A stretch of 64,000 bases of DNA from Eubacteriales bacterium. Lineage in GTDB: Bacteria; Bacillota; Clostridia; Oscillospirales; RGIG5299. This document shows positions 1,884 through 49,945 of the stretch, piece by piece. Where the stretch lies: the NCBI GenBank assembly GCA_045588575.1, contig JAZNEJ010000008.1, forward strand, positions 261,492 to 325,491. Direction: 5' to 3'. The translations under genes were made by a program, and so were the position numbers. Position 1 is the stretch's first letter. Each line of letters begins with the position of its first letter. Below the pieces are notes generated by a model. That model searched no databases, was not told where the DNA came from, and saw only the letters and a list, made by a program, of their open reading frames with translations.

Positions 1884-2457
1884 TTGGTTTTCACTTTTTG
1901 AAGAAGAATTAAAAAAAGCAAACGGTGAAAAGAGTCTGCTTTTGCATTCGTGTTGCGCTCCTTGCTCAAGCTCGGTTTTAAAAACGCTTGAAGCGGCTTT
2001 TAAAATAACGGTTTTTTATTCTAATTCAAACATCTTTCCTTTTGAAGAATTTGAAAAAAGAGAAGCCGAGCAGCAAAGGCTTTGCTCCCTTTGGAAATAT
2101 CCCGTTATTACCGATGCTTATAATCACTCCGATTTTTTAAAATCGGTTACGGGGCTTGAAAAGGAACAAGAGGGCGGCGAAAGATGCAGGGCGTGCATTG
2201 CATACCGAATGGAGCAAACGGCAAGGCTTGCCAAAGAAAAAGGGTTTGATTATTTTACAACGACCTTATCGGTTTCACCGCACAAAAATGCAAACCATAT
2301 AAACGAAACGGGCAAAGCGCTCGAAGAAAAATACGGTGTTAAATATCTTTACGCCGACTTCAAAAAGAAAGACGGCTATTTAAACAGTATTCGTCTTTCA
2401 AAGGAGCTTGAATTATACAGGCAAAGCTATTGCGGCTGTGAGTTTTCAATAAGATGA
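1876..2457 (+). CDS. queH: Epoxyqueuosine reductase QueH (DUF208)
   Basis: Motifs LLLHSCCAPCSS, CRACIAYR and SYCGC are typical of QueH. I prefer the ATG at 1876 (MVNWF), which overlaps the rdgB stop, over the track start at 1843. Confidence 0.8.
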   Translation: MVNWFSLFEEELKKANGEKSLLLHSCCAPCSSSVLKTLEAAFKITVFYSNSNIFPFEEFEKREAEQQRLCSLWKYPVITDAYNHSDFLKSVTGLEKEQEGGERCRACIAYRMEQTARLAKEKGFDYFTTTLSVSPHKNANHINETGKALEEKYGVKYLYADFKKKDGYLNSIRLSKELELYRQSYCGCEFSIR

Positions 2458-2470
2458 AAGGAAAAAAGCA

Positions 2471-3658
2471 ATGAAAATCGGCATATTCGGCGGCACCTTC
2501 GACCCCCCTCATAAAGGACACGAGCTTTTCTTAAAAAGCTTTATAACTGAATATCGGCCCGATAAAATGCTTGTTATTCCAACGAAAATTCCGCCGCATA
2601 AGGCGTGCGAAACAACGTCGGCAGAGCATAGGCTCAAAATGGCAAAGCTTGCCTTTAAGGGAATTGCCGAGATTGAAGATTGCGAGCTTAAACGGCACGG
2701 TCAAAGCTACACGGCAGATACGTTATCTTACTTAAAAAAGAAATATCCAAACGACGAGCTTTATTTCATAATCGGAAGCGATATGCTCTTTACCTTCAAA
2801 AACTGGTATAAGCCCGAGCTTATTTCTTCCTTGGCAACGGTTGTTGCCGCCCCCAGAATAAACGATGCCGCTCTTGTTTCGCAAATGGAGCAAACGGCAA
2901 AGGAATATGAAAAGAAATTCGGCGGCAAATTTGAAATTTTCAAAATGGCACCCCTTGAAATATCTTCAACGGGAGTGAGAGAGGGAAAAACTCTTGAAAT
3001 TTCGGAAAGCGTTTTGAGATATATTAAAGAAAACGGGCTTTACGAGGAAAGCGAAGAAATCAAAAGAATAAAAGAAATTTTATCTCGGAGGCTTTCGCCA
3101 AAAAGATATTATCATTCGCTCGGAGTTATGAACACGGCGGGCGAGCTTGCAAGAATTTACGGCGAAGACGTTGAGCGGGCGAAAATTGCAGGCCTCGTTC
3201 ACGATTGCACCAAGGAGCTCAAAATAAACGAGCATCTTGAAATTGTTGAAAAATACGGCATAAAAATTCCCGAAGCCGAAAAAAATATAGAAAAGCTTTA
3301 CCACTCCAAAACGGGTGCGGTAATGGCGAGAATTCTTTTCGGAATTGAGGACGAAGAAATTTTAAAGGCCATTGAATGCCACACGGCAGGCAAAGCGAAA
3401 ATGACTCGGTTTGAAAAGATTTTGTTTTTAGCCGATTTTATAGACCCGTCGAGAACCTACAAAGGCGTTTCGGCAATAAGAAAAAAGGCGTTTAAAAACC
3501 TCGAAGAAGCAATAATGGAATGCGTAAGCTTTACCGTTATAGACCTTGCCAAACGGGGAAAATCAATAGCGCCGAACACCTTCGAAACCTATAACGATAT
3601 TGTTTCGGAGCTTGAAAAACAAAAAACGAAAGGTGATTTTTATGGAAAAAATATTTGA
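2471..3658 (+). CDS. nadD: Fusion protein: nicotinate-nucleotide adenylyltransferase NadD (N-terminal) and HD-domain YqeK-like hydrolase (C-terminal)
   Basis: 395 aa. The N-terminal half has GIFGGTFDPPHKGH and SSTGVR (NadD). The C-terminal half has HSLGV..HDCTK..H..FLADFIDP (HD domain of the YqeK type). Confidence 0.85.
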   Translation: MKIGIFGGTFDPPHKGHELFLKSFITEYRPDKMLVIPTKIPPHKACETTSAEHRLKMAKLAFKGIAEIEDCELKRHGQSYTADTLSYLKKKYPNDELYFIIGSDMLFTFKNWYKPELISSLATVVAAPRINDAALVSQMEQTAKEYEKKFGGKFEIFKMAPLEISSTGVREGKTLEISESVLRYIKENGLYEESEEIKRIKEILSRRLSPKRYYHSLGVMNTAGELARIYGEDVERAKIAGLVHDCTKELKINEHLEIVEKYGIKIPEAEKNIEKLYHSKTGAVMARILFGIEDEEILKAIECHTAGKAKMTRFEKILFLADFIDPSRTYKGVSAIRKKAFKNLEEAIMECVSFTVIDLAKRGKSIAPNTFETYNDIVSELEKQKTKGDFYGKNI

Positions 3659-4013
3659 AGCGGTTAAGCTTGCGGTTAAAGCGCTTGACAGTAAAAAGGG
3701 CGAGGATATAAAGGTTATTAAAACCTCGGAAATAACCGGTCTTGCCGATTACGTTGTAATTTGCACAGGCTCGTCGTCCACCAAAATAAAAACCCTTGCC
3801 GATTACACCGAGGTTGCTCTTAAAGAGGCGGGCGAGCCCGTTTTGCACAGAGAAGGCTACATTGAAGGAAACTGGGTTTTACTCGATTACGGCTTTATGG
3901 TTGTAAACATCTTTAACAGTAAAACACGAGAATTCTACGCCCTCGAACAGCTTTGGCAAGCGGGCGAGCAAATAGATACCGATGAAATTTTAAAAGAGAA
4001 AGACGGAGAATAA
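3642..4013 (+). CDS. rsfS: Ribosome silencing factor RsfS (iojap-like)
   Basis: Iojap motifs are present ([38 protein letters not shown]). I chose the ATG at 3642 (MEKIFEAV). The track start at 3600 overlaps nadD. Confidence 0.88.
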
Positions 4014-4017
4014 GAAA

Positions 4018-6423
4018 ATGAAATACGAATACAGTGAAATAGAAAAGAAATGGCAAAAATATTGGGAGGAAAACAACAGCTTTGCGGCAAAAGACGATTA
4101 TACGCTTCCTAAATTCTACCCGCTCGTTGAATTCCCCTATCCGTCGGGCGCAGGTCTTCACGTAGGGCATCCCCGCTCATATACCGCGCTTGATATTATT
4201 GCAAGAAAGCGCCGCTTAAACGGCTATAACGTTTTATATCCTATGGGATGGGACGCTTTCGGCTTGCCCGCTGAAAACTACGCAATTAAAAATCACGTTC
4301 ACCCCAAGGATATAACCGAGCAAAACATTAACCGTTTCCGTTCTCAGCTTAAATCACTCGGTCTTTCTTTTGATTGGTCGAGAGAGGTAAACACCACCGA
4401 CCCCTCTTACTATAAGTGGTCGCAGTGGATTTTCTTAAAGCTCTTTGAAAAAGGCCTTGCCTACAAAAAAGAGATGGCGGTTAACTGGTGCACCTCCTGC
4501 AAATGCGTTTTGGCAAACGAAGAGGTTGTAGACGGCGTTTGCGAGCGTTGCGGAAGTCAGGTTGTCAGAAAGGTTAAAGAGCAGTGGATGCTTAAAATCA
4601 CCGCCTACGCCGAGCGTTTAATCAACGATTTAGACGAGGTTGACTATCTTCCCAGAGTTAAAACCCAGCAGAAAAACTGGATTGGACGTTCAACCGGCGC
4701 AGAGGTTGATTTCGTAACAACCGCAGGCGAAAAATTAAGAGTTTACACCACAAGGCCCGATACTCTCTTCGGCGCAACCTATATGGTTATTTCGCCCGAG
4801 CATCCCATAATCGAAAAGCACAAGGATAAAATTAAAAACTACGCCGACTGCGTGGCTTACAGAGAAGAAGCTGCCAAAAAGTCCGATTTCGAGCGCACCG
4901 AGCTCGTTAAGAGCAAAACCGGCGTTAAAATTGACGGCATTTCGGCATTTAATCCCGTTAACGATAGGGAAATTCCCATTTACATATCCGACTACGTTTT
5001 AATGAGCTACGGCACCGGCGCAATTATGGCCGTTCCCGCTCACGACGAGAGAGACTACGCCTTTGCAAAGGTATTTAATCTTCCCATTATTGAGGTTGTT
5101 AAGGGCGGCGATATTGAAAAAGAAGCATTCACCGATATTGAAAGCGGCGAAATGATAAACAGCGGCTTGTTAAACGGTCTTTCGGTTGCCGAGGCAAAGA
5201 AGAAAATCACCGAATGGCTCAAAGAAAACGGCAAGGGCGAGCCCAAGGTAAACTATAAGCTTCGCGACTGGGTTTTCTCACGTCAGCGTTATTGGGGCGA
5301 GCCTATTCCGCTCATCTACTGCGAAAAATGCGGCTGGGTACCCGTGCCCGAAAGCGAGCTTCCGTTAACTCTTCCCGACGTTGAGCATTACGAGCCCACC
5401 GATAACGGCGAATCACCCTTATCTAAAATTGATAGCTTCGTAAACACCACCTGCCCCAAATGCGGCGGCGCGGCAAAAAGAGAAACCGACATTATGCCCC
5501 AATGGGCAGGCTCCTCGTGGTATTTCCTCCGTTATTGCGACCCGCATAACGATAAAGAGCTCGCATCTAAGGAAGCTCTTAATTACTGGACTCCGGTTGA
5601 CTGGTATAACGGCGGTATGGAGCACACCACCCTCCACCTTCTCTATTCGAGATTCTGGCATAAATTCCTTTACGATATAGGCGTTGTTCCCACCGCAGAG
5701 CCTTATGCAAAAAGAACCAGCCACGGTATGATTTTGGGCGAAAACGGCGTTAAAATGTCGAAATCGCTCGGCAACGTAGTAAATCCCGACGATATAGTAA
5801 GAGATTACGGCGCCGACACAATGCGTCTTTACGAAATGTTTATAGGCGATTTTGAAAAAACTGCACCGTGGTCCACCTCTTCAATTAAGGGCTGCAAGAG
5901 ATTTTTGGAAAAAATCTTAAATCTTCTTGATATTACCTTTGCCGACAAAGCAGACGAAGAGGTTGAAAGAGAGCTTCATAAAACCATCAAGAAGGTAACC
6001 GAAGATATTGAAGCAATGAAGTTTAACACCGCAATAGCGGCAATGATGAGCTTTGCAAACGTCGTTTCGGAGAAAAACAGCTTAACCAAAGAGCAGTTAA
6101 AAACCTTCGTGCTTTTACTCAACCCCTTTGCACCGCACTTAACCGAAGAAATGTGGCAGCTTCTCGGCGAGGAAAAGCCCATTTGTGAGGGCGCAAAATG
6201 GCCCGAATATGAGGAAAGCAAATTGGTTGCCTCAACCTTAACGCTTCCCGTTCAGATAAACGGCAAATTAAAGGGTACAATTTCCGTTTCGCTTAACGCC
6301 GAGCAGGACGTTGTTTTGGAAACCGCAAAGGCCGATGGAAAAATTGCCGCCGCTCTTGAAGGCAAGCAAATTGTAAAAGTAATTTACGTAAAAAATAAAA
6401 TGTTAAACGTTGTAGTAAAGTGA
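4018..6423 (+). CDS. leuS: Leucine--tRNA ligase
   Basis: 801 aa. Class I HIGH-type motif ([10 protein letters not shown]) and KMSKS (VKMSKSLGN). Overall LeuS architecture. Confidence 0.97.
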
Positions 6424-6435
6424 GGAGAAAAGCAG

Positions 6436-9063
6436 ATGGAAAAAGTAACACCCATGGGTTTAAACGAAATCAGAGAGAAATATCTTGCTTTTTTCGAGAA
6501 AAAAGACCATTACAGAGAGAAAAGCGCATCGCTCGTTCCCGATGGCGACAAAGGCTTACTGCTCATAAATGCGGGTATGGCGCCGCTTAAAAAATATTTC
6601 ACGGGCGAGGCAACTCCTCCCGCACCCAGAATGACCACCTGCCAAAAGTGCATAAGAGTTTTAGATATTGAAAGAGTTGGCAAAACCAGCCGCCACGGCA
6701 CCTTTTTTGAGATGCTCGGAAACTTCTCGTTCGGCGACTATTTCAAAAGAGAGGTTTGCGCTTGGGCGTGGGAATTCCTTTTAACCGAATTAAAGCTTCC
6801 CAAGGAGCGTCTTTACGTTTCGGTTTATTTGGAGGACGACGAGGCCTATGATATCTGGACCAAGGAAATAGGCGTTGACCCCTCTCATATGGTTCGTTTG
6901 GGCAAGGCAGATAACTTCTGGGAAATAGGCGCGGGCCCTTGCGGCCCCTGCACCGAAATTTATTTCGACAGAGGCGAGGAATATTCCTGCGGCTCACCCG
7001 ACTGTAAGGTTGGCTGCGATTGCGACAGATACGTTGAATTCTGGAACCTCGTTTTCTCGCAGTTTAACAACGACGGCAACAATAACTACACCGAGCTTGC
7101 TCACAAAAATATCGATACCGGTATGGGCCTCGAAAGAATGGCTTGCATTATGCAGGGTAAAACCAGCATTTTCGAAATTGATACCGTTCAGAATATTATG
7201 AAAAAAATAAGCGAGGTAAGCGGTGTAAAATATAAGGAAAACGAAAAATCCGACCTTTCGCTTCGCATAATCACCGACCACATCAGAGGCTCCGTTTTCT
7301 TAATCGGCGACGGCGTTTTACCTTCAAACGAGGGCAGAGGCTACGTTTTGCGTAAGCTCATTCGCCGCGCGGCGCGCCACGGCAGACTTTTAAAGGTTGA
7401 AAAGCCCTTCCTTTATCAAATTGCCGAAACGGTTGCCGAGCTTAATAAGCAGGCATACCCCGAGCTCACCGAGCGTTTGGAATATATAAAAAGAGTTTTA
7501 AAGAGCGAGGAGGAGCAGTTTGCAAAAACAATAGGAAGCGGACTCGAGCTTCTTTCCGAGCTTATGAATAAGGGCGAAAAGGTAATTTCGGGCAAAGATG
7601 CTTTCCGTCTTTACGATACCTTCGGCTTCCCGCTTGACCTCACCAAAGAAATCGCCGAGGACGGCGGATTTACGGTAGATGAGGAAGGCTTTAACGCCGA
7701 AATGCAGGCTCAAAGAGAGTCTTCGAGAAAAGCAAGAGAAAAAATGGGCGATTTCGGTTGGGAAAAGCACATTTCGGTTAAAGACCTCGGCATAAAGGCC
7801 GAATTTACGGGTTATAATGAACTGGAAACCACGGCGGCGGTAAAGGCAATTTTCGTTGGCGCCGAAAGAGTTAACTCGGTTTCCGAGGGAGAGGTTGCAA
7901 CTCTCATCTTTGAAAAAACACCCTTCTACGCCGAAATGGGCGGTCAGCCCGGCGATAAGGGCAAAATTGAGGGCGAAAACTGCGCTTTAAAGGTTAAAAA
8001 CACCTTAAAGGGTGAAGATAATATAGCGCTTCATCTCGTTGAGGTTATTTCGGGCGAGGTTAAAGAAGGCGATGTTTTAACGCTTAAAGTTTGCAAAAAT
8101 AACAGAATGCGAGTTTCGAGAAATCACTCGGCAACCCACCTTCTCCAAAGAGCGTTAAAAGACGTTGCGGGCGACCATATTTCGCAGGCAGGCTCGGCGC
8201 TTTCACCCGAAAGCTTTACCTTCGATTACACCTGCTTTGAGCCGCTTTCAAACGAGGCTCTTTCAAAGGTTGAGGAGCTTGTTAATAAATTTATTTTCGA
8301 AGCAAGCCCCGTTGTAACCGAGGAAATGTCGATTGAAGATGCCAAAAAATCGGGCGCCGAGGCGCATTTTAGCGAGAAATACGGCAAAACCGTAAGAGTT
8401 GTTTCAATGGGCGCTTCAAAAGAACTTTGCGGCGGCACGCACGTTAAGAATACTGCTGAAATCGGTCTTTTCAAAATAATTTCCGATTCATCTGCGGCGG
8501 CAGGCGTAAGAAGAATTGAAGCGGTAACCGGCGATGGCGTTTTAAGAGTTTTAAACGAAAAGCAGGCACTCATTTCAAACGTAGTCGATGCCTTAAAGGG
8601 CAAGGGCGAAAAAGAGCTTTTAACCAGAGCCACCGTTGTAATGAGCGAGCTTAAAGATACCAAAACCAAGCTCGAAACAAGCGAAAGCCGCATTTCCGAA
8701 ATGCTTTACGAGGGCGTTGTTAACACCGCAACCGAGCAAAACGGAATTAAGGTTATAGTTTCTTACTTAAAGAATACCGATTTGTCAATTGCAAGAAGCA
8801 TTGGCGACAGAATTAAAGAAAGAATTTCAAACGCATCGGCAATTATTGCCTGTGAAAAAGACGGCAAGGCAAACTTCGTTTCGGTTAACGGTGTTGATGC
8901 CGTTAAGCTTGGCAGAAATGCAGGCAAAACCGTTTCCTTTGCGGCGAAGCTCACAAACGGCAAGGGCGGCGGAAAACCCGATATGGCAGTTGCGGGCGTT
9001 GGAAATATTAACGATATCGAAAAAGCGTTAGAGGAAACCAAAGCGAAATATTTCGAGATATAA
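6436..9063 (+). CDS. alaS: Alanine--tRNA ligase
   Basis: 875 aa. AlaRS motifs FFEMLGNFSFGDYF, the editing-domain HxxxH (HSATHLL) and CGGTH, and a C-terminal DHHA1-like end. Confidence 0.97.
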   Translation: MEKVTPMGLNEIREKYLAFFEKKDHYREKSASLVPDGDKGLLLINAGMAPLKKYFTGEATPPAPRMTTCQKCIRVLDIERVGKTSRHGTFFEMLGNFSFGDYFKREVCAWAWEFLLTELKLPKERLYVSVYLEDDEAYDIWTKEIGVDPSHMVRLGKADNFWEIGAGPCGPCTEIYFDRGEEYSCGSPDCKVGCDCDRYVEFWNLVFSQFNNDGNNNYTELAHKNIDTGMGLERMACIMQGKTSIFEIDTVQNIMKKISEVSGVKYKENEKSDLSLRIITDHIRGSVFLIGDGVLPSNEGRGYVLRKLIRRAARHGRLLKVEKPFLYQIAETVAELNKQAYPELTERLEYIKRVLKSEEEQFAKTIGSGLELLSELMNKGEKVISGKDAFRLYDTFGFPLDLTKEIAEDGGFTVDEEGFNAEMQAQRESSRKAREKMGDFGWEKHISVKDLGIKAEFTGYNELETTAAVKAIFVGAERVNSVSEGEVATLIFEKTPFYAEMGGQPGDKGKIEGENCALKVKNTLKGEDNIALHLVEVISGEVKEGDVLTLKVCKNNRMRVSRNHSATHLLQRALKDVAGDHISQAGSALSPESFTFDYTCFEPLSNEALSKVEELVNKFIFEASPVVTEEMSIEDAKKSGAEAHFSEKYGKTVRVVSMGASKELCGGTHVKNTAEIGLFKIISDSSAAAGVRRIEAVTGDGVLRVLNEKQALISNVVDALKGKGEKELLTRATVVMSELKDTKTKLETSESRISEMLYEGVVNTATEQNGIKVIVSYLKNTDLSIARSIGDRIKERISNASAIIACEKDGKANFVSVNGVDAVKLGRNAGKTVSFAAKLTNGKGGGKPDMAVAGVGNINDIEKALEETKAKYFEI

Positions 9064-11954: not shown

Positions 11955-13654
11955 ACTATCTTGAAAACTATAAAAAGTGGCTTGAATCAGATGCGGTAGA
12001 TGCCGCCACCAAAGAGGAGCTTTTGAAAATTAAAGATGACGAAAACGAGCTTATAATGCGCTTTTCCGACATAATGCCCTTCGGAACGGCAGGGCAAAGA
12101 GGCGTTATGGGTGCGGGCCTTAACCGTCTTAACCTTTACACCGTGCGCTACACCACCAAAGCGCTTGCAAACCTCATAATAAAAGAGGGAAAAGAAGCGA
12201 TGAAAAAGGGTGTTGTAATAGCTTTTGACTGTCGCATAAATTCCAAGGAATTCGGTTTTGCCGCCGCCGAAATTTTAGCATCAAACGGCATTAACGTAAT
12301 GATTTTTAACGAAATAACTCCCACTCCCGTTCTTTCCTACACCATAAGAAAAACGGGCGCAATAGCGGGTATTAACATAACGGCAAGCCATAATCCTCCT
12401 GAATATAACGGCTATAAGGTTTATTGGTCAAACGGCGCTCAAATGCCGCCCGACCACGCCGCTGAGGTTGCAAACGAGCTTAAAGTTTTAGATATTTTTG
12501 AAGATTGCAAGATAGAAAAAACCGAAAAAAGCGGCAAAATTAAAATTTTGAACACCAAATATGAAAAGCTTTTCTGTAAAGAGGTTTTAAAAAGAAGCAT
12601 AAATCATAAGGCGGCAAAGGAAACCTCCTTAGAGGTTTATTACTCTCCGCTTCACGGAACGGGACTTCGCGCAGTGCCTGCGGTTTTGAAAAAAATCGGC
12701 GTTAAGGTAAACTGTGTTGAGGAACAAATGGTGCCCGACGGCTATTTTACCACCGTTTCTTCGCCTAATCCCGAAAACGTTTCGGCATTTGAATTATCGG
12801 TTAAAAAGGCGGAGAAAAAGGGAAGTAAGGCAGACCTTTTAGTAGCAACCGACCCCGATGCCGACAGAATAGGCGTAATGGTAAAGCATAACGGCGAATA
12901 CGTTGCTTTAAACGGCAATCAAACCGGCGTTTTGCTTCTTTACTATATAATTTCGGCAAAAAAAGAAAAGGGAAAGCTTCCAAAAAATGCGGGAGCCGTT
13001 TCAACAATTGTTTCAACTCCTCTTGCCGAGCAAATTGCAATTAAAAACGGCGTAAAATTTGCATCAACCTTCACCGGATTTAAGTTTATTGCCGAGCAAA
13101 TCGACGAATGGCTCGGAAAAACGAAATTCATCTTCGGCTTCGAGGAAAGCTTCGGCTATATGGTGGGCGACTATGCGCGAGATAAAGACTCAATAGGCGC
13201 CGCAATGATGGTTTGCGAAGCCGCGGCGTATTATAAAAAGAGCGGCAAAACGTTAATTGATGTTTTAAACGGCATCTATGAAGAATACGGATATTACGGC
13301 GAAACCACCGATAATATAATGATGAAGGGCATAGACGGAGCCGAAAAAACCAAAAAGCTTATGGAAACTCTCCGAGGCGATATAACCGAAATCGGCGGCG
13401 AGAAGATAGTTAAAATTGCCGACTACAAGACGGGTGAGATTAAAGACGTCAAAACGGGCAAAACCGAGCCTACGGGAATGGAAAGCTCCGACGTTTTGAA
13501 GTTTTTCACCAAAAACGGCTCTGCAATTTGCGTGCGTCCTTCGGGCACCGAGCCCAAGGTTAAGGTTTATTATCTCATTAAGGGCAAGGACGAAAAAACC
13601 TGCAAAAAGCTCACTGAAAAGATGAAAAAAGATATAGATTCATTGGTAAAATAA
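11951..13654 (+). CDS. Phosphoglucomutase/phosphomannomutase family phospho-sugar mutase
   Basis: 567 aa. Active-site serine loop ITASHNPPEYNGYK, metal loop ATDPDADR, and GFEESFG. Confidence 0.9.
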   Translation: MNYLENYKKWLESDAVDAATKEELLKIKDDENELIMRFSDIMPFGTAGQRGVMGAGLNRLNLYTVRYTTKALANLIIKEGKEAMKKGVVIAFDCRINSKEFGFAAAEILASNGINVMIFNEITPTPVLSYTIRKTGAIAGINITASHNPPEYNGYKVYWSNGAQMPPDHAAEVANELKVLDIFEDCKIEKTEKSGKIKILNTKYEKLFCKEVLKRSINHKAAKETSLEVYYSPLHGTGLRAVPAVLKKIGVKVNCVEEQMVPDGYFTTVSSPNPENVSAFELSVKKAEKKGSKADLLVATDPDADRIGVMVKHNGEYVALNGNQTGVLLLYYIISAKKEKGKLPKNAGAVSTIVSTPLAEQIAIKNGVKFASTFTGFKFIAEQIDEWLGKTKFIFGFEESFGYMVGDYARDKDSIGAAMMVCEAAAYYKKSGKTLIDVLNGIYEEYGYYGETTDNIMMKGIDGAEKTKKLMETLRGDITEIGGEKIVKIADYKTGEIKDVKTGKTEPTGMESSDVLKFFTKNGSAICVRPSGTEPKVKVYYLIKGKDEKTCKKLTEKMKKDIDSLVK

Positions 13655-13662
13655 ATAAAAAT

Positions 13663-13687
13663 CCGTCCGTTTATAATAGACGGACGG
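13663..13687 (+). terminator. Hairpin after the mutase gene (weak terminator or processing structure just 5' of the tRNA)
   Basis: CCGTCCG (13663-13669) pairs with CGGACGG (13681-13687) around an 11-nt loop. Only a weak T-run follows. Confidence 0.4.
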
Positions 13688-13693
13688 CAATTT

Positions 13694-13770
13694 CCGCCGT
13701 TAGCTCAGTTGGATAGAGCGTTGGATTCCGATTCCAAAGGCCGGGGGTTCAACTCCTCTACGGCGGGCCA
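13694..13770 (+). tRNA. tRNA-Arg (anticodon CCG), CCA encoded
   Basis: Folded by hand: acceptor CCGCCGT/ACGGCGG; D-arm GCTC-AGTTGGATA-GAGC; anticodon arm TTGGA-TTCCGAT-TCCAA (CCG at positions 34-36); variable loop AGGCC; T-arm GGGGG-TTCAACT-CCTCT (two G.U pairs); discriminator G; CCA. Confidence 0.9.
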
Positions 13771-13806
13771 AAAAATAACCAAGCCCACGGGGTTTGGTTA
13801 TTTTTA
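13771..13806 (+). terminator. Rho-independent terminator T1 (bidirectional type) after tRNA-Arg(CCG)
   Basis: An A-run, then AATAACCAAGCCC-ACG-GGGTTTGGTTATT (13-bp stem with one G.U pair), then TTT. Confidence 0.8.
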
Positions 13807-13957
13807 ATTTAAGCAAAGCTTAAAAAGAGGAGTTGAACTGTGAATGGGAGCGAGGGTGAGAAAACGAAACCGAGCGACAGAGGAACAGTCCTGCGGACTG
13901 TTACGACATTCACCCAAAGGAGCTTGCGACTGCGATAGACTCCTCTACGGCGGGCCA

Positions 13958-13990
13958 AAAAAAGCAAGCCCGAAGCGGCTTGCTTTTTGT
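13958..13990 (+). terminator. Terminator T2 after module 1 (a different hairpin in the same position)
   Basis: An A-run, then AGCAAGCC-CGAAGC-GGCTTGCT, then TTTT. Confidence 0.75.
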
Positions 13991-14144
13991 TTGGTTTATG
14001 CCTGCTTAAAATGAGGAGTTGAACTGTGAATGGGAGCGAGGGTGAGAAAACGAGACCGAGCGACAGAGTAACAGTCCTGTGGACTGTTACGACATTCACC
14101 CAAAGGAGCGTTGCGACTGCGATAGACTCCTCTACGGCGGGCCA

Positions 14145-14180
14145 AAAAATAACCAAGCCCACGGGGTTTGGTTATTTTTA
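14145..14180 (+). terminator. Terminator T1 copy after module 2
   Basis: Identical to 13771-13806. Confidence 0.8.
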
Positions 14181-14331
14181 ATTTAAGCAAAGCTTAAAAA
14201 GAGGAGTTGAACTGTGAATGGGAGCGAGGGTGAGAAAACGAGACCGAGCGACAGAGAAACAGTCCTGTGGACTGTTACGACATTCACCCAAAGGAGCTTG
14301 CGACTGCGATAGACTCCTCTACGGCGGGCCA

Positions 14332-14366
14332 AAAAATAACCAAGCCCACGGGGTTTGGTTATTTTA
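14332..14366 (+). terminator. Terminator T1 copy after module 3
   Basis: Same hairpin as 13771-13806, with a T-run one nt shorter. Confidence 0.8.
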
Positions 14367-14465
14367 ATTTAAGAACGATTAAAAAGAGGAGTTGAAATTT
14401 ACTGTCATTTTTAATAAAAAAACACTGCATTTTTTGTAATAGGTTACAAAATAACCGCATAAATC

Positions 14466-14494
14466 TTGACATGTAATTTTAAACGATGTATTAT
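14466..14494 (+). promoter_or_regulatory. Sigma-A type promoter of the GntR-ABC operon
   Basis: TTGACA (14466-14471), a 17-nt spacer, then TATTAT (14489-14494). Confidence 0.6.
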
Positions 14495-14515
14495 TGTATT
14501 AATAAAACAATACAA
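14494..14515 (+). promoter_or_regulatory. Inverted repeat TTGTATT-N8-AATACAA, candidate GntR/YtrA-type operator
   Basis: Perfect 7-bp arms that overlap the -10 box and lie upstream of the regulator's own gene. The GT..AC core resembles GntR-family operators. Confidence 0.45.
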
Positions 14516-14534
14516 ACGAAAGGAGATAAAAGCA

Positions 14535-14900
14535 ATGTCGTGGCAATTTAACGGAACGCAGGCGGTATATATACAAATTGCCGATAAACTGCGTCGCGAC
14601 ATAGTAGGCGGAAAATACCCGCCCGACACTCAGGTTCCAACGGTAAGACAGCTCGCTTTTGATGCATCGGTAAACCCCAACACAATGCAAAGAGCGTTAT
14701 CGCTTCTTGAAGAAGAAGGGCTTTTGATTTCAAGAGGCGCAATGGGAAGATTCGTTGTATCGGAGCCTTGCATTCTTGAAAATGCAAGAAAAAAGATTTG
14801 CATTGAAACCGTAAACCGTTTTTGTTCCGAGGCAAAAGCGCTGGGTCTTTCACGCTCGGAGCTTATCGACTGTATTAAGGAGGCAGAAATTTATGGATGA
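14535..14900 (+). CDS. GntR-family transcriptional regulator, short YtrA-like subfamily
   Basis: 121 aa from the ATG at 14535, which follows AAAGGAG. Winged-HTH sequence VPTVRQLAFDASVNPNTMQRALSLLEEEGLL. The track start at 14466 lies inside the promoter. Confidence 0.85.
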   Translation: MSWQFNGTQAVYIQIADKLRRDIVGGKYPPDTQVPTVRQLAFDASVNPNTMQRALSLLEEEGLLISRGAMGRFVVSEPCILENARKKICIETVNRFCSEAKALGLSRSELIDCIKEAEIYG

Positions 14901-17492: not shown

Positions 17493-17513
17493 AAAATTTA
17501 TTATCAAAAAAAC

Positions 17514-17541
17514 AGAAAACCACCCAATCGGGTGGTTTTCT
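17514..17541. terminator. Bidirectional terminator hairpin
   Basis: AGAAAACCACCC-AATC-GGGTGGTTTTCT (12-bp stem), with A-runs upstream and a T-containing arm. It sits between the 16470 gene end and the outermost tRNA 3'-end copy. Confidence 0.75.
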
Positions 17542-17582
17542 TGGCGCACTTTAAGGGACTACTGCTCGCCTGCGGGCTCGGT
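17542..17582 (-). repeat. Outermost copy of the tRNA-Arg(ACG) 3' end (19 nt) plus about 22 nt of the module core arm (truncated module, att-like junction)
   Basis: TGGCGCACTTTAAGGGACT at 17542-17560 is identical to 19941-19959 and 20102-20120. The adjacent ACTGCTCGCCTGCGGGCTCGG resembles GCTGCTCGCCCCAAGGGCTCGG at 19960-19981. Confidence 0.85.
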
Positions 17583-17591
17583 TTGGCGCAA

Positions 17592-17768
17592 AGCGATGCC
17601 AGAACTGATATTTATGCCGTTGGCGTTTTGCTTAACGTAATGCTAACGGGAAAGCATCCGAGCGAAAAACTGGCAGATGGCAAAGCGGGTAAAATAGTGC
17701 GAAAATGCACCGCTATAAACCCCAATGAACGTTATCAATCGGCAAAAAATCTTGCAGCTGCATTATAG
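17592..17768 (+). pseudogene. 3' fragment of a Hanks-type Ser/Thr protein kinase gene (catalytic subdomains IX-XI only)
   Basis: The translation DARTDIYAVGVLLNVMLTGKHP...CTAINPNERYQSAKNLAAAL matches the kinase C-lobe. The N-terminal ~200 aa are absent and the frame runs into the repeat junction. Confidence 0.75.
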
Positions 17769-18545: not shown

Positions 18546-19655
18546 GTGAAAAGAGCATTACCCATTGTGTTAGCGGCAATAATATGTTTATTGTTGGTTG
18601 GCTACGCGGGTTTACATAAACCGGAACCAAGCATTCCTAACAGTTCTATCAATTCTAGTGAACCTAGCGGTTCAGCCGAGTCAAACAGTTCTACCGAGAC
18701 AAGCAGCTCTGCTGAGTCAAGCACACCAACAACATCGAGCGAGCCTGTGGATAATACCTCTTCGGAAAACTCATCCGAAGAACCAACCACTTCGAGCAAA
18801 CCCGTAGACAACAACTCTTCAAACAACTCGTCCGAAGCGTCCAATACTTCAAGCGGTCCTGAGGATAATACATCTTCGGAAGGTTCCTCCGAAGCACCAA
18901 CTACATCAAGCAGACCTTCGGATAATACGTCTTCAAACAGCTCATCGCAAACATCCTCCGAGGCACCAACAACGTCGAGTATTCCCTCGGAAAGTTCCAA
19001 TTCCCGCCCAGAGAGTTGGCTTGATATTTCCGGCCTAACCTACACTCAAGCTGATGTTGGTAAGGTTGTTGGGTATACCTCCGTGTTTGGCGAAGATATT
19101 ACGGTTGTTTCGGTTGAAGAAGGAACCACGGCGGATGGCAGAAAATTTATTGAAGTCAATTTTTCGTTCCATACATCATCACACGGTTCCTCTGTCGTAA
19201 AAATTGAGTGTGAGTATTGCCATGAATTTCCTTGTCCCAATGGCGGCGATGAGGACTGTCCCGAATACGATCCTCTAAAAGACGGTTCCGTCACCTGCCA
19301 ACAATGTGGTAGACCTTATGGCGATGGTTATAACGGCACTTGTCATAGTAAAATCGATTGGGAACATGGCGGTTTTACTTTCTGTAACCACCTCGACGAT
19401 CTTTCTGAAAGAATTGGGGTATATGAGCAGGAAAAAGTCGAAATCGGAGGCGGATATTATAATCGCCTAAAGGTATATACTTTGGAGAAAAGTGATGAGC
19501 AACAAGAGCTTTTTGTTCAAGCATTTGAAAACGCTTTCGGTTATACTCCTATCCACATCAATTGTATGTCAATTGGAAAACATTTAATTGGTAACAGCGA
19601 TACCCCTCAAGAAGTTTTTTGCTATTTTCGCTATTACGAAGAGACAGAACCTTAA
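18546..19655 (+). CDS. Membrane-anchored or exported protein with a Ser/Thr/Glu/Pro-rich repeat linker and a Cys/His-rich C-terminal domain
   Basis: 369 aa, GTG start. N-terminal hydrophobic helix, about 4.5 copies of a 19-aa repeat, then CEYCHEFPCPNGGDEDCPEYD..CQQCGRPYGDGYNGTCHSKIDWEHGGFTFCNH. Confidence 0.65.
   Translation: MKRALPIVLAAIICLLLVGYAGLHKPEPSIPNSSINSSEPSGSAESNSSTETSSSAESSTPTTSSEPVDNTSSENSSEEPTTSSKPVDNNSSNNSSEASNTSSGPEDNTSSEGSSEAPTTSSRPSDNTSSNSSSQTSSEAPTTSSIPSESSNSRPESWLDISGLTYTQADVGKVVGYTSVFGEDITVVSVEEGTTADGRKFIEVNFSFHTSSHGSSVVKIECEYCHEFPCPNGGDEDCPEYDPLKDGSVTCQQCGRPYGDGYNGTCHSKIDWEHGGFTFCNHLDDLSERIGVYEQEKVEIGGGYYNRLKVYTLEKSDEQQELFVQAFENAFGYTPIHINCMSIGKHLIGNSDTPQEVFCYFRYYEETEP
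18731..18990 (+). repeat. In-frame ~57-bp tandem coding repeats (TSSxPxDNxSSxxSSExxx)
   Basis: Repeats read from the translation: TSSEPVDNTSSENSSEEPT / TSSKPVDNNSSNNSSEASN / TSSGPEDNTSSEGSSEAPT / TSSRPSDNTSSNSSSQTSSEAPT / TSSIPSESS. Confidence 0.8.
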
Positions 19656-19778
19656 ATGGTCAGATTAACTGGCTCTTGTTCGGACGGAACAAAAGCCAAT
19701 CTTGCTGGCACATCGTTTTATGATAATATAACCTATTAATTTGCGCATTTTAGTCTTCTCTGGAGACGATAGAAAAAT

Positions 19779-19865
19779 CCTTGGCGATGGTTAAATAATG
19801 GCACTTGTCACGGACTTATTGACTGGGCTAACGGTGGAAAACTGATTTGCAATCACTACGATTAA
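19779..19865 (+). pseudogene. Decayed duplicate of the Cys-rich motif region of the preceding gene
   Basis: CCTTGGCGATGGTTAAATAATGGCACTTGTCAC...AATCACTACGATTAA parallels 19312-19398 (PYGDGYNGTCHSKIDWEHGGFTFCNH). It has a 2-nt deletion and reads ..NNGTCHGLIDWANGGKLICNHYD*. Confidence 0.6.
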
Positions 19866-19902
19866 TATAATATAGTCTTAAACAAATATTTCAGCCCCTT
19901 TG

Positions 19903-19940
19903 AGCCAATAACCTTAACTGGTTATTGGCTCTTTTTATTT
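19903..19940 (+). terminator. Rho-independent terminator (plus-strand sense)
   Basis: AGCCAATAACC-TTAACT-GGTTATTGGCT followed by CTTTTTATTT. Confidence 0.75.
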
Positions 19941-20101
19941 TGGCGCACTTTAAGGGACTGCTGCTCGCCCCAAGGGCTCGGCCACTCGCGGCTCTGACCG
20001 TTCCCCGAACGGTCATTCACTACCGCTCGCCTTCGAGTCCCTTAATTTAAAATTGACGAACAAAAAAATAAGCAGCCACCCCAAAGGGTAACTGCTTATT
20101 T
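19941..20101 (-). repeat. tRNA-Arg(ACG)-linked module. In tRNA sense it reads terminator, linker, antisense T-arm, 72-nt core, 19-nt tRNA 3'-end copy.
   Basis: On the plus strand, TTCGAGTCCCTTAA at 20032-20045 is an inverted copy of the tRNA T-loop, T-stem and acceptor start. The 19-mer is at 19941-19959. The terminator hairpin is at 20068-20099. Confidence 0.9.
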
Positions 20102-20178
20102 TGGCGCACTTTAAGGGACTCGAACCCCTGACCTTCTGGTTCGTAGCCAGACACTCTATCCAGCTGAGCTAAAAGTGC
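20102..20178 (-). tRNA. tRNA-Arg (anticodon ACG), CCA encoded
   Basis: The reverse complement folds as acceptor GCACTTT/AAAGTGC; D-arm GCTC-AGCTGGATA-GAGT; anticodon arm TCTGG-CTACGAA-CCAGA (ACG at positions 34-36); variable loop AGGTC; T-arm AGGGG-TTCGAGT-CCCTT; discriminator G; CCA. Confidence 0.92.
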
Positions 20179-20208
20179 AATTTCGCTCTGCGGGCGTTCC
20201 GCCGTATT

Positions 20209-20237
20209 ATGATAGCACAAAGACAAACAAAAAGCAA
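20209..20237 (-). promoter_or_regulatory. Candidate extended -10 promoter for tRNA-Arg(ACG)
   Basis: On the minus strand: TTGCTT, a 17-nt spacer ending in TGC, then TATCAT. It lies about 30 nt upstream of the tRNA 5' end. Confidence 0.45.
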
Positions 20238-20297
20238 GCATTTTAAGCTAATTTTGAAAAAATATTTTTTATTGACGTATAAAAATAGCCCGTTTGT

Positions 20298-20326
20298 TTG
20301 ACAAAGCGTGTGGCTTGTTATATAAT
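20298..20326 (+). promoter_or_regulatory. Consensus sigma-A promoter of mnmE-mnmG
   Basis: TTGACA (20298-20303), a 17-nt spacer, then TATAAT (20321-20326). Confidence 0.65.
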
Positions 20327-20382: not shown

Positions 20383-21750
20383 ATTGCGGCAGTTGCAACG
20401 GCAAGAGGCACGGGCGGCGTTGCGGTTATAAGAATAAGTGGCGAAGATGCCTTGAAAATCACTCAAAAGGTTTTTAAAACCGCCAAAAAAAGCTTTTCTC
20501 CCGAGCCGAGATACGTTTATTTCGGAAAAATTGAGCAAGACGGAAGAGTAATTGATACCGCTCTTTTAACCTATTTCAAGGCTCCGGCATCCTATACCGG
20601 CGAGGACGTTTGCGAAATAAGCTGCCATGGCGGAATAAAAGTAACCGAACAGGTTTTAATTACAATTCTTTCGGCGGGAGCTCGAATGGCGCTTCCCGGT
20701 GAATTTACCAAAAGAGCGTTTATAAACGGCAAGCTTCTTTTAGATGAAGCCGAAGCGGTTGGCGAAATAATAAATGCCGACAGCGACGCCTGCTTAAAAG
20801 CGGCGGCAAGCAACTTGGTAAGCGGCGCAGGCAAGGCGCTTTCGGAAGAAAAAGAAACCTTAAAAGATATTTTGGCAAGATTTTTTGCAGTTATAGACTG
20901 GCCGGACGAAGAAATTGAGGAAGACGATTTTAATTCGTTAAGCGCCAAGCTTTTAAAAGTAAAAGAAAGCTTTACCGAGCTTCTTTCAACGGCAAAAAGC
21001 GGCAGAATAATTAAAAACGGCGTGAAAACCGCAATAATAGGAAAGCCAAACGCAGGAAAATCCACCCTTATGAACGCTTTGGCAGATTACGAGCGAAGCA
21101 TAGTAACCTCAATTCCCGGAACAACGAGAGACGTTGTTAACGAAACCGTTTCCATAGGCGGCATAAAGCTTGAAATATCCGATACTGCGGGTATCAGAAG
21201 CTCCGATGACGAAATTGAAAAAATAGGCATAGAAAAAGCTTTTTCGGAGCTTGAAAAAGCCGAACTCGTAATTTACACCGTCGACACCACCTCGAAAATC
21301 GACGAAGAAGAAATTAAGCTTGCCGCCAAAATAAAGGCGGAAAAGAAACCCACTGTGGCGGTGTTTACAAAACAGGATTTAAGTGAAATAACCTTAACCG
21401 AGGCAAAGGAAATTTTAAAAGAGCTCGGTCTTAACTGTAAATATGCCGTAATTTCGGCAAAAAACCGCAAAGGACTTGAAGCGCTCTCGAAGGAAATTGA
21501 AAAAATAACGGGAGTAAACGAGATAACCGAAGGCAAGCCGGTTTTGTTAAACGAAAGGCAAATAGGCTGTTTAATTAAAGCAAACGAAGCGGTAGACGCC
21601 GCAATAGAGCTTATAAAAGAAAGAGAAATGCCCGATAAAATTGCCGAGGAATTAACAGCGGCGATAGAGGCGGTTTCGTCGCTTGACGGAACCAAGGCAG
21701 ATGAAGAAATTTTAAAAACCATTTTCTCAAAATTCTGCGTGGGCAAATAA
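20383..21750 (+). CDS. mnmE: tRNA modification GTPase MnmE (TrmE); start codon uncertain and non-canonical
   Basis: G-domain motifs GKPNAGKST, DTAG and TKQD, and the C-terminal FCVGK. Conserved N-terminal residues DTIAAVATARGTGGVAVIRISG are encoded upstream of the track's TTG at 20452. An in-frame stop lies at 20362-20364. Confidence 0.9.
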   Translation: MAAVATARGTGGVAVIRISGEDALKITQKVFKTAKKSFSPEPRYVYFGKIEQDGRVIDTALLTYFKAPASYTGEDVCEISCHGGIKVTEQVLITILSAGARMALPGEFTKRAFINGKLLLDEAEAVGEIINADSDACLKAAASNLVSGAGKALSEEKETLKDILARFFAVIDWPDEEIEEDDFNSLSAKLLKVKESFTELLSTAKSGRIIKNGVKTAIIGKPNAGKSTLMNALADYERSIVTSIPGTTRDVVNETVSIGGIKLEISDTAGIRSSDDEIEKIGIEKAFSELEKAELVIYTVDTTSKIDEEEIKLAAKIKAEKKPTVAVFTKQDLSEITLTEAKEILKELGLNCKYAVISAKNRKGLEALSKEIEKITGVNEITEGKPVLLNERQIGCLIKANEAVDAAIELIKEREMPDKIAEELTAAIEAVSSLDGTKADEEILKTIFSKFCVGK

Positions 21751-21764
21751 AGGAGTAAAACGTT

Positions 21765-23681
21765 TTGCAAGGATATATTGCTGAAAGCTATGATATTGCA
21801 GTCATCGGCGCAGGCCACGCGGGCATTGAAGCGGCGCTTGCGGCGGCAAGGCTCGGTCTTAAAACCATAATATTTTCAATAAATTTGGATTCGGTTGGCA
21901 ATATGCCCTGTAATCCCTCAATCGGCGGCACCGCAAAGGGCCATTTAGTAAGAGAAATAGATGCGCTCGGCGGCGAGATGGGAAAAGCGGCCGATAAATG
22001 CGCAATTCAAATAAAAATGTTAAACCGCGGCAAAGGTCCCGCAGTTTACAGTTTAAGAGCGCAAATAGACCGCAAACGCTATTCCGAATATATGAAGCAG
22101 GTAATTGAGCGCACCGAAAATCTCGACTTAAAGCAAGCGGAAATAACCGAAATCCGCTTTAAAGAGGGAGCAGACGGCAAAAAAGAGGTTGAAAGCGTTG
22201 TAACGCATCTCGGCGCGGTTTATCCCGTTAAGGCGGCAATAGTTGCAACGGGAACCTATTTAAAGGGCAGAGTTTTAATAGGCGAGGTTAATTTTCCCTC
22301 GGGACCCGACGGTCTTTTCCCCTCAATAAATCTTTCAAAAAGCTTAAAAAGCGCGGGAATAAAGCTCGTCAGATTTAAAACGGGAACCCCTGCGAGAATT
22401 AAAAAATCTTCAATAGATTACAGCAAAACCGAGCTTCAGGAGGGCGAAACCGACCTTTGTCCTTTTTCGTTTACCTCAAAAGCGCCGCCCAAAAACAAGG
22501 CGGTTTGCCACTTAACCTACACGAACGACGAAACCAAAAGGGTAATAATGGAGAATTTAGACCGTTCTCCGCTTTACACGGGCGTAATTGAGGGCGTTGG
22601 TCCGAGATATTGTCCCTCGATTGAAGATAAGGTAGTGCGCTTTGCCGATAAAAAAAGGCATCAGCTCTTTTTAGAGCCGATGGGCCTTTCGACCGACGAA
22701 ATTTACGTTCAGGGCATTTCGTCATCGCTTCCCGAGGACGTTCAGCTTTCACTTATGAAAACCATTCCCGGCCTTGAAAACGTTAAGATAATGAGAACGG
22801 CATACGCCATTGAATACGATTGCATTGAGCCCACCGAGTTAAAGCCGAGCTTGGAATTCAAAAAGATTAACGGCCTTTTCGGCGCAGGGCAGTTTAACGG
22901 AACGTCGGGCTACGAGGAGGCGGCGGCGCAAGGTCTTATTGCAGGCATTAACGCCGTTAAAAAGATAAAAGGGGAGGAGCCTTTAATACTTCTTCGCTCA
23001 AGCTCATATATCGGCACTCTTATTGACGATTTGGTAACCAAGGGCACAAACGAGCCTTACAGAATGATGACCTCCCGCTCGGAATACCGCCTTATTTTAA
23101 GGCAGGATAACGCCGACGTAAGACTCACTCCCATAGGCTATGAAATAGGGCTTATAGACCAAAAAAGATATAACGGATTTTTGAGAAAGCAAAAAAAGGT
23201 TTCAAAAGAGCTTGAAAGAGTAAAAAAGGTAACGGTAAAGCCCTCGAAGGCGGTTAACGACGCTTTGATTTCGGTTGAAAGCGAGCCTTTAAAAACGGGA
23301 GTAAGACTTTCGGAGCTTATTAAGCGTCCGAGAGTTACCTACGAGCTTCTTTCGGTTGGCGATTTTGAAAGACCGAAGCTTTCGAAGGATATAACCGAAG
23401 AGGTTGAAATATTATTAAAGTACGACGGATATATTAAACGTGAGGAAAGAGAAGCGGAGAAATTCGTTAAAGAAGAATCGAAGCTTTTGCCTCAAAATAC
23501 CGATTACACCAAAATAACGGGACTTCGCTTGGAAGCACGGCAAAAGCTTCAGAAAATGCGTCCCGTAAGCATTGGTCAGGCATCGAGAATATCGGGCGTA
23601 TCTCCCGCCGATATTGCGGTTTTGGTGCTGTGGCTTCAAAATAAGGGTATTCCCAAAAACGAAAAAAAGAGCGGTGATTAA
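21765..23681 (+). CDS. mnmG: tRNA uridine 5-carboxymethylaminomethyl modification enzyme MnmG (GidA)
   Basis: 638 aa. FAD-binding motif [16 protein letters not shown], GidA signature regions ([11 protein letters not shown]), and a TTG start 9 nt after AAAGGAG. Confidence 0.95.
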
Positions 23682-49639: not shown

Positions 49640-49945
49640 GCATGACTGAATAATGCGATGATGCGGGAGGTTGCCGCAAAGGGTTACTGCACCTTTTCGG
49701 GTTTTTCCGCGGAGTATGTCCGATGCATGACGTCGGGCGGCAGGCAATTTGTACACAGATTAAAAACGGGCCATCTTTGAGCCTTGTCTTTTAATTGATG
49801 TGGTGTGTTATTCCGATTTTTTTCATAATGTAAAAAAGTCGGATTTATTGTGTAAACACAAAAAACGCACGGAGCGATGTGTAGCGTAAGCGCTTGCGAA
49901 TAGGTCAATAAAAAATCTCAAAAGAGAATTTTAGGAGGCGTAAAA
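49640..49945 (+). promoter_or_regulatory. ~300-nt structured leader of the S10 operon with two terminator-like hairpins
   Basis: Hairpin 1: CCGCAAAGG-N9-CCTTTTCGG then GTTTTT (49674-49706). Hairpin 2: TCCGATTTTTTT-N8-AAAAAAGTCGGA then TTTATT (49812-49849). Confidence 0.5.

Follow-up and report, generated by a model that had tools for sequence, protein, structure and literature searches.

The RtT repeats of the Escherichia coli tyrT operon have been known since the 1970s and have been treated as an enterobacterial curiosity. The operon carries a 178-bp unit in 3.14 copies, each with 19 nt of the 3' end of tRNA-Tyr. A check on strain K-12 with TRF gives 178 bp in 3.1 copies, and the Rfam model RF00391 matches four units (133-137 bits), one of them between tyrT and tyrV and the other three beyond tyrV; the tyrT locus of Klebsiella has the same layout. 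The subject here is an array of modules directly downstream of a tRNA-Arg(CCG) gene in a 64,000-nt stretch of DNA from an Eubacteriales bacterium (GCA_045588575.1, contig JAZNEJ010000008.1), referred to as the window. Judged from their sequence, the modules are a new variant of the RtT design, a folded RNA-like element of ~135 nt that occurs in gut Clostridia and in phages.

In the RtT consensus, the closing helix is formed by GGGGAAGGAU (antisense of tRNA-Tyr 59-68) and the 3' copy AAUCCUUCCCCCACCACCA (A58-A76). Purine-rich GCGAG blocks, a perfect hairpin, CCCGAAGGGCGA and a GCGA..GA.UA strand lie inside this helix; an unpaired CCA tail follows it. The name rttR refers to one tyrT repeat unit (PMC3318445). 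Processing of the tyrT transcript is reported to yield rtT RNA (PMC3318445, citing Bosl & Kersten 1991; bioRxiv 10.1101/2024.07.17.603846). This RNA is possibly tied to the stringent response, its mode of action being unknown (bioRxiv 10.1101/2024.07.17.603846). The RtT RNAs of Klebsiella are multi-copy and are expressed in RNA-seq (PMC4147364), and a tandem GA motif in RtT is supported by covariation (PMC7657543). No description of such elements outside Enterobacteria was found in the literature searched. Matches of RtT outside chromosomes were rejected: the sole match in phages is a mislabelled Salmonella chromosome, and the 'plasmid' matches include chromosome-sized records (e.g. Klebsiella CP125156.1, 5.37 Mb), 28 of 28 being typed as non-mobilizable.

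The array spans 13752-14396, with a 187-bp period and 3.5 copies (TRF). The 19-mer ACTCCTCTACGGCGGGCCA, identical to A58-A76 of the tRNA, is found in four exact copies at 13752, 13939, 14126 and 14313 (chance expectation 0); the exact 187-bp spacing claimed in the original prediction is borne out by exact search and by TRF. AGAGGAGTTGAAC, the reverse complement of tRNA positions 53-65, is exact at 13826 and 14200 and has one mismatch at 14012 and 14385, in line with the antisense T-arm pieces that had been described. The three modules are near-identical, as had been proposed: their aligned cores differ by three substitutions and one insertion/deletion (indel), and a 28-mer of the core is found three times in the array. 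The flanking hairpins T1 and T2, also part of that description, are recovered by folding (T1, -20.2 kcal/mol, z -5.2; T2, z -3.8) and both are followed by T-tracts; a simple terminator scan picked T2 only, not T1. Downstream of the array end, the DNA is unrelated (GntR promoter and gene). The tRNA is the sole family recognised by Rfam 15 in 13300-14800, even at E<=10, and ARAGORN finds no tRNA or tmRNA within the modules. The statement that the modules match no described repeat class was wrong: the 178-bp, 3.1-copy repeats of E. coli tyrT (RtT, RF00391) share their architecture.

Table 1. Positions of the tRNA genes, modules and hairpins in the window.
Feature	Positions	Strand	Evidence
tRNA-Arg(CCG); its last 19 nt (A58-A76, 13752-13770) are the first repeat copy	13694-13770	+	ARAGORN; Rfam tRNA model, 62 bits
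T1: A-tract, 16-bp hairpin and T-tract, 3' of the tRNA	13771-13805	+	fold
Module 1: antisense T-arm/P1 5' strand 13826-13838, core 13839-13938, sense 19-mer 13939-13957	13826-13957	+	sequence; R1, 157 bits (the sequence itself is part of the model)
T2: terminator-like hairpin, no relation to T1	13958-13990	+	terminator scan; fold, -19.7 kcal/mol
Module 2: P1 5' strand begins TGAGGAGT (1 mismatch), core 1 nt longer	14012-14144	+	sequence; alignment; R1
T1 copy	14145-14179	+	sequence; TRF
Module 3	14200-14331	+	sequence; alignment; R1
T1 copy, shorter by one T	14332-14365	+	sequence
Array end AGAGGAGTTGAA: start of a fourth module, broken off after the T-loop complement	14385-14396	+	sequence
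tRNA-Arg(ACG)	20102-20178	-	ARAGORN; Rfam
Terminator hairpin after tRNA-Arg(ACG)	20065-20101	-	fold, -24.9 kcal/mol, z -7.0
Second-type module: antisense AAGGGACTCGAA 20043-20032, sense 19-mer AGTCCCTTAAAGTGCGCCA 19959-19941	19941-20043	-	R1, 28 bits; R2, 70 bits (the sequence itself is part of R2); 19-mer search
Hairpin following the second-type module	19902-19931	-	fold, -20.6 kcal/mol, z -6.6
Orphan 3' end of a second-type module (AAACCGAGCCCGCAGGCGAGCAGT and exact Arg(ACG) 19-mer)	17542-17584	-	19-mer search; repeat family D2
Terminator hairpin and T-tract after the orphan end	17506-17541	-	sequence

No clear promoter was found for tRNA-Arg(CCG). The stretch from the PGM stop codon to the start of the tRNA contains a hairpin (TCCGTCCG...CGGACGG, 13663-13689) whose loop includes TATAAT. 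Within the PGM gene itself, a copy of AGAGGAGTTGAAC with one mismatch (13011-13023, minus strand) is probably a chance match.

The modules are conserved outside this strain, at the same tRNA. The PGM of the window has one 99% match, the next best being 66-69% identical, as for a sparsely sampled lineage of gut Clostridia. Look-ups of exact copies of its PGM and GntR proteins gave no record; the PGM sequence equals that of a protein on a 336-kb NCBI contig. In three loci from metagenome-assembled genome (MAG) lineages (L002, L007 and L023; PGM 67-69% identical), the upstream synteny alaS-aroA-MBL-SPOUT-TSCPD-PGM is kept, and PGM is followed by tRNA-Arg(CCG) and then by modules (one in L002, one in L007, two in L023 and three in the window). 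At least one module is kept at this tRNA in every one of them; no empty site was found in the four lineages sampled. The T-arm and acceptor stem of the relatives' tRNAs differ from those of the window, and both module ends change accordingly. The antisense segment AGAGGAGTTGAAC of the window corresponds to GTAAGGGATTTGAACC in L002, GAAGGGAGTCGAACC in L007 and AAGGGATTCGAAC in L023; the 3' tRNA copy is AATCCCTTACGGCAGGCCA in L002, A-T-TCCCTTCAGGCGGGCCA in L007 and AATCCCTTCAGGCGGGCCA in module 1 of L023. This copy begins at A58 at both tRNAs of the window, in L002, in module 1 of L023 and in E. coli, and in L007 with one mismatch at position 59; among the viral copies described below, it begins at C56 in locus L036 and at T55 in the phage copy. 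A module lies directly 3' of the tRNA, on the same strand, at both tRNAs of the window and in L002, L007, L023 and L036. Alignment A1 contains seven modules from four lineages, with their tRNA-derived ends and short flanking stretches; its columns are on average 82% identical, and the core is more conserved than the flanking spacers. The downstream genes differ in all four lineages, and the locus is therefore a synteny breakpoint.

Wider scans added no CCG-type locus. A contig scan of genomes with the module pattern gave only the two MAGs already known from synteny. The nine loci found in a scan of metagenome contigs were rejected as chance matches in coding DNA without tRNA; this gut lineage is missing from the JGI collection, and a broader pattern was probably needed. 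Short-read contigs of three relatives (L001, L010 and L011) stop at or just before the start of tRNA-Arg(CCG), which suggests that the tRNA or repeat region routinely breaks short-read assemblies. Just downstream of the L002 module, Rfam recognises a Gut-1 RNA (RF01706; 7036-7109, 51.5 bits); at the matching position of L023 (~7220-7320), a similar multi-hairpin element with GTGAAAT spacers is found.

The pattern of substitutions in the CCG-type core is of the RNA type. A covariance model (R1) was built from the seven modules, and compensatory changes were counted over a topology of four helices: P1, which closes the element, the GUGAAU/AUUCAC helix, a hairpin of 10 bp and a small one on the 3' side. 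In A1, 97.4% of cells are standard-paired, vs 33-49% with slid partners, and seven pairs have changes on both sides. Examples are AACAGTCC/GGACTGTT to AACAGTTC/GAACTGTT in L007 and GTGAAT/ATTCAC to GCGAAT/ATTCGC in module 1 of L023. The G.U pairs are found on the plus strand; they become A.C mismatches if the modules are read from the other strand.

The CCG locus is not unique in the window. R1 also matches 19938-20048 on the minus strand (28 bits, E 8e-5), where a module of a second type lies directly downstream of tRNA-Arg(ACG), the only other tRNA of the window; an orphan 3' end of this type is found further on (Table 1). The order on the minus strand is tRNA, terminator hairpin, AAGGGACTCGAA, core, AGTCCCTTAAAGTGCGCCA and another hairpin. 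AAGGGACTCGAA is the reverse complement of TTCGAGTCCCTT of tRNA-Arg(ACG), and AGTCCCTTAAAGTGCGCCA is exactly A58-A76 of the same tRNA. Both tRNAs of the window thus carry a module that mirrors its own tRNA at its ends. The 72-nt core is unlike the CCG core in sequence; it has GUGAAUGA, an 8-bp hairpin and CCC-UUG-GGGCGAG, and reads in order ...GGUAGUGAAUGA, the hairpin GACCGUUC-GGG-GAACGGUC, UCAGAGCCGCG and CCC-UUG-GGGCGAGCAGC. A search of the relatives for Arg(ACG) modules, anchored on mnmE, found no tRNA next to this gene; the two convergent tRNA-plus-module loci of the window are therefore lineage-specific.

The second core type is also found in gut phages. BLAST of the Arg(ACG) module gave a match in the 75-kb Oscillospirales phage PV036458, a complete phage in which no tRNA gene was found. 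The phage module stands alone, with a terminator hairpin on either side; its antisense strand is CGGGCTCGAA and its 3' end TCGAGCCCGGTCACCGGCACCA, the acceptor strand of which (GCCGGTG) we take to be Thr-like. Its core shows two compensatory hairpin changes, and a promoter, TTGCAA-17-TAAAAT, lies upstream on the same strand. Promoter, hairpin, module and terminator appear as one cassette (L027 2909-3150; PV036458 62.3-62.6 kb). The phage encodes three large serine recombinases, 6-15 kb from the module and none of them adjacent.

A pattern scan of IMG/VR for the second core gave 19 loci with 24 matches. One locus (L044) was discarded as a chance match, which leaves 18 loci with true copies. Some copies are linked to a tRNA. 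In L036, the order is tRNA 3' end, terminator, TGGATTCGA, core, AATCCACCCTCCTCCACCA and terminator, then prophage tail genes; L031 carries two modules in tandem. Most viral copies are closed by GC-rich stems without relation to a tRNA and are found in 2-3 copies per contig; elements closed in this way occur in L032-L035, L037, L039-L043, L045-L047 and L049. The viral element is made up of a P2 stem, a UAGUGAAU/AGAG internal loop, an 8-bp hairpin and GACCGAGCCCGCAGGCGAGAC, and some copies then continue into CUGAUGAG-like strings. Copies lie just 3' of co-oriented genes in 14 of the 18 loci, and consensus promoters are found upstream of two. In an alignment of 13 distinct second-type cores (A2), 92.8% of cells are paired, vs 23-45% in slid controls, and nine pairs show a double change. 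The asymmetric UAGUGAAU/AGAG internal loop is invariant in A2; it looks like a kink-turn (k-turn), but the k-turn consensus of a C-stem, a 3-nt bulge and tandem sheared G.A/A.G pairs is matched only with one extra U. No Rfam family was found for the viral element.

Several features connect the two types. The 17-mer hairpin ACAGTCCGGTGGACTGT is identical between the CCG-type module of L002 and viral copies, and both types have GUGAAUG before the hairpin and CCC-loop-GGG(A/C)GCG after it. With R2, a second model partly built on the Arg(ACG) module, the six matches that rank after this module are the CCG modules (six of the six searched), at 12-15 bits and E 0.2-1.2 each, individually not significant. 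The YGAA, an apparent T-loop complement, aligns with the GCGAAG junction of viral copies whose ends do not derive from a tRNA, so that some of the 'antisense T-arm' is a motif of the family. A BLAST search of phages and plasmids with the CCG-type module gave no match, and neither the window-specific CCG core nor the general CCG-type pattern was found in viral contigs.

These modules are probably a structured trailer RNA of the RtT type, with a tRNA-like CCA 3' end. Each is ~135 nt long, lies on the tRNA strand just downstream of the tRNA, and pairs the T-arm complement with the 3' tRNA copy (A58 onward) to form P1. With P1 built on a 3' copy that starts at A58, the predicted RNA ends in the single-stranded acceptor strand and CCA of the tRNA. 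The conserved core inside P1 comprises GUGAAUG, a perfect 8-10-bp hairpin, a CCC-loop-GGG(A/C)GCG mini-hairpin and a purine-rich GCGA...GA strand. RNA polymerase would reach the modules from the tRNA side by reading through the leaky hairpin of the tRNA; some phage copies would use a promoter of their own. The tRNA-identical 3' end would then be trimmed to CCA by the enzymes of tRNA 3' maturation, giving a stable RNA with a tRNA-like tail. Most plausibly, such an RNA would imitate the T-arm/acceptor 3' half of its own tRNA, or compete with it, for a tRNA-binding factor. The 3.5-copy array would have arisen by unequal homologous recombination between '19-mer + T1 + linker' repeats; the copy numbers of the lineages are 1, 1, 2 and 3.

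Several points weigh against a trailer RNA of this kind. A strong hairpin and T-tract stand between the tRNA and each module, so the predicted transcription rests on read-through. The units had been described as terminator-bounded, and the hairpins are indeed present, but an independent transcription unit is not implied: the promoter scan found no sigma-70-like promoter inside the array. The 11-nt 3' tail is unpaired, so trimming might overrun the CCA. The CCG-type alignment holds only seven sequences from four lineages, and covariation in P1 is confounded, both strands being derived from the tRNA. RF00391 has no match in 13300-14800 and 19700-20300 at E<=10, and none at its gathering threshold (45 bits) in the window, L002 or L007. 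In the reverse direction, R1 reaches at best 7.7 bits on E. coli, misaligned, and R2 gives no match there. The link to RtT is, on this comparison, one of shared architecture, either very old or convergent, and not of family membership. Moreover, we know of no function that has ever been assigned to RtT itself.

Recombination has occurred around the modules. The terminal sequence of module 2 of L023, AATCCCTT-CGCCTCCACCA, is that of another tRNA's 3' end; 3.6 kb downstream lies an orphan module 3' end (Arg(CCG) tail with its own terminator), with 38 nt in common with module 2. In the window, a third exact Arg(ACG) 19-mer (17542-17560, minus strand) follows AAACCGAGCCCGCAGGCGAGCAGT, the 3' part of a module, and is followed by a terminator, 2.4 kb past the complete module. 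The orphan end adjoins a weak C-terminal fragment of a protein kinase (17586-17768, plus strand, E 0.003). Gene blocks are thus bracketed by repeats of module 3' ends, which makes the modules targets of recombination, as tRNA genes are; these repeats reach into the core of the module, the target being therefore the module and not the tRNA. The 2.4-kb block of the window, between the complete module and the displaced 3' fragment, consists of unannotated open reading frames (ORFs); one of 369 aa (18546-19655), without Pfam match, contains 57-nt tandem repeats (~3-4 copies, 18724-18979). The 3.6-kb block of L023 (7176-10790) carries the multi-hairpin RNA-like element and two beta-helix/pectate-lyase-like genes.

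The blocks resemble islands at tRNA and tmRNA genes in their direct repeats of a 3' end that start inside the T-loop, in the synteny breakpoint, and in being bracketed by a restored element and a displaced 3' fragment, the signature of tyrosine-integrase islands. They differ from such islands in having no integrase, in the array of complete 187-bp modules without cargo and in a core with RNA-type covariation. As predicted, no integrase, transposase, reverse transcriptase or cas gene was found among 39 ORFs of the window (0.5-49.5 kb) compared with Pfam, and neither block holds an integrase.

It is doubtful that the modules are att cassettes, or remnants of elements or phages that target tRNA 3' ends, with the array as an accretion scar and the core as a protein-bound attP arm. 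Direct repeats of the tRNA 3' end, the synteny breakpoint in four of four lineages, the 2.4-kb and 3.6-kb blocks bracketed by 'module 3' part + tRNA end' repeats and the foreign tRNA end on module 2 of L023 all fit this explanation, as do the tRNA-less phage PV036458, with a tRNA 3' end and CCA on its module, and L036, with a module between tRNA and prophage tail genes. However, no integrase gene was identified in the window, in the two blocks or next to the phage module, and the genes called in the L023 block are beta-helix genes. The array repeats whole units instead of 3' fragments, and no lineage of the four has an empty site. Phage contigs each carry the same core 2-3 times with non-tRNA stems, and not all of these copies can be attP. 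Compensatory changes and the strand bias of G.U fit an RNA and not a protein-binding DNA. A 187-bp circle would be an implausible integration substrate, given the stiffness of DNA. Of the first option in the original prediction, the building of the array by integrase accretion is therefore not supported, and the modules as recombination sites remain. With a trailer RNA, the conserved 3' ends could themselves be targets of recombination or integration, like tRNA and tmRNA genes, which would give the orphan 3' fragments and the synteny breakpoint. Two other DNA-level candidates were rejected. A MITE-like (miniature inverted-repeat transposable element) mobile repeat does not fit 8-bp inverted ends that vary with the host tRNA, or copies found in the window only at two tRNA loci and as one orphan. 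An integron attC-like reading of GTTGAAC/GTTCAAC was dropped, for it fits only the window's own T-loop sequence.

The second option, an RNA acting in trans on tRNA, is also unlikely in its strict form. Here, the 5' stretch would pair with the T-arm of tRNA-Arg, mature or precursor, or the tail would titrate acceptor-end enzymes or toxins, phages using such decoys to manipulate host tRNA or to blunt defences. The complementarity to the host tRNA extends over 13-16 nt, vs the 8 nt needed for P1, and it tracks the A57/G57 difference between lineages; the module of the tRNA-less phage mirrors what must be a host tRNA, behind a near-consensus promoter. Yet 8 of the 13-16 nt are sequestered in P1, and the extra YGAA(C/G) coincides with the GCGAAG junction motif, found also in viral copies without tRNA-derived ends. 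The T-loop complement is degenerate in E. coli RtT, the covariation at position 57 may be a single evolutionary event, and the T-arm is buried in the folded, modified tRNA. What stands of this option is an RNA with a tRNA-like 3' end (four helices with compensatory changes, G.U on the plus strand, covariation in the sister core); its anti-T-arm idea is weakened by the P1 strand and the GCGAAG motif.

Very improbable is a small basic peptide encoded by each module, like the 'protamine-like' tpr ORF of E. coli RtT, from an AGGAG-like site and a GTG/ATG at the core start. AGAGGAG does lie 7-11 nt upstream of GTG/ATG, a gene caller predicts a 55-aa ORF in L003, and tpr is annotated in an E. coli unit. 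A 1-nt indel separates the window modules and a 2-nt indel the lineages, however, so that the peptides agree over ~14 codons only; the second-type phage copy stops after four codons, and substitutions in helices are compensatory, not synonymous. Frame-shifting indels and the lack of a conserved frame exclude a coding reading. An over-expanded repeat produced by the assembly, as the contig breaks of the relatives might suggest, is hardly credible for units that differ in substitutions, an indel and T1 vs T2 and that lie in a 336-kb contig, L023 having two diverged modules independently.

Elsewhere in the window, tRNA-related housekeeping genes (RNase PH, QueH, LeuRS, AlaRS, MnmE/MnmG) are found at 563-9063 and 20452-23681, probably by coincidence. 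An S10-Clostridia ribosomal-protein leader (RF03136, 43 bits; 49650-49747, plus strand) precedes a ribosomal protein operon.

The RtT design now extends to another phylum, to other tRNAs and to phage genomes. Its ends match the cognate tRNA and its core covaries, which argues that the architecture is selected and not accidental. R1 and R2 represent two candidate RNA families absent from Rfam 15, that of R2 being common in gut phages; they provide comparative material for the search for a partner. The modules also explain the rearrangement hot spots at these tRNA loci and the breaks in short-read assemblies. As a long shot, the modules could belong to a large undescribed RtT-like superfamily of portable 'tRNA 3'-half' mimics, used by gut Clostridia and by the phages of these bacteria, re-tailored to a chosen tRNA, matured like it and competing for a factor that binds the acceptor/T-arm, and serving in addition as decoy integration sites that spare the tRNA gene. 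Such a factor could be an enzyme that processes the 3' end or adds CCA, a sensor of the stringent response or a defence nuclease directed at tRNA. If this were true, E. coli RtT would finally gain a function.

Among other described RNAs, T-box leaders, tmRNA and YrlA/Y-RNA-like RNAs have in common with the modules a tRNA-related sequence and a CCA-ending 3' strand; unlike them, the modules have no 5' acceptor strand, specifier or antiterminator. The Rfam models for T-box, tmRNA and YrlA give nothing beyond a chance-level match overlapping the tRNA itself, and hammerhead, HEARO and other Rfam families do not match. RtT remains the closest system, with the following differences. The tRNA is Arg in the window and Tyr in RtT, and the hosts are Firmicutes and Enterobacteria, respectively. 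An intrinsic-terminator hairpin follows the tRNA and every module in the window, whereas none is found in the E. coli units. The T-loop complement is intact in the window and degenerate in RtT. The modules of the window also have a sister core in phages, without tRNA-derived ends. In both systems, nevertheless, the units lie directly downstream of a tRNA gene, on the same strand and in tandem (178 bp in 3.1 copies in E. coli, 187 bp in 3.5 copies in the window). Units are also found between tRNA genes, and the copy number varies. The 3' end of each unit repeats the final 19 nt of the tRNA (A58-CCA76), and a closing helix of an antisense T-arm piece with this copy encloses a hairpin-containing core. 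The inner order is also the same: purine-rich GCGAG blocks, a perfect hairpin, CCC-loop-GGG-CGA, a GCGA..GA.A strand and an unpaired CCA tail.

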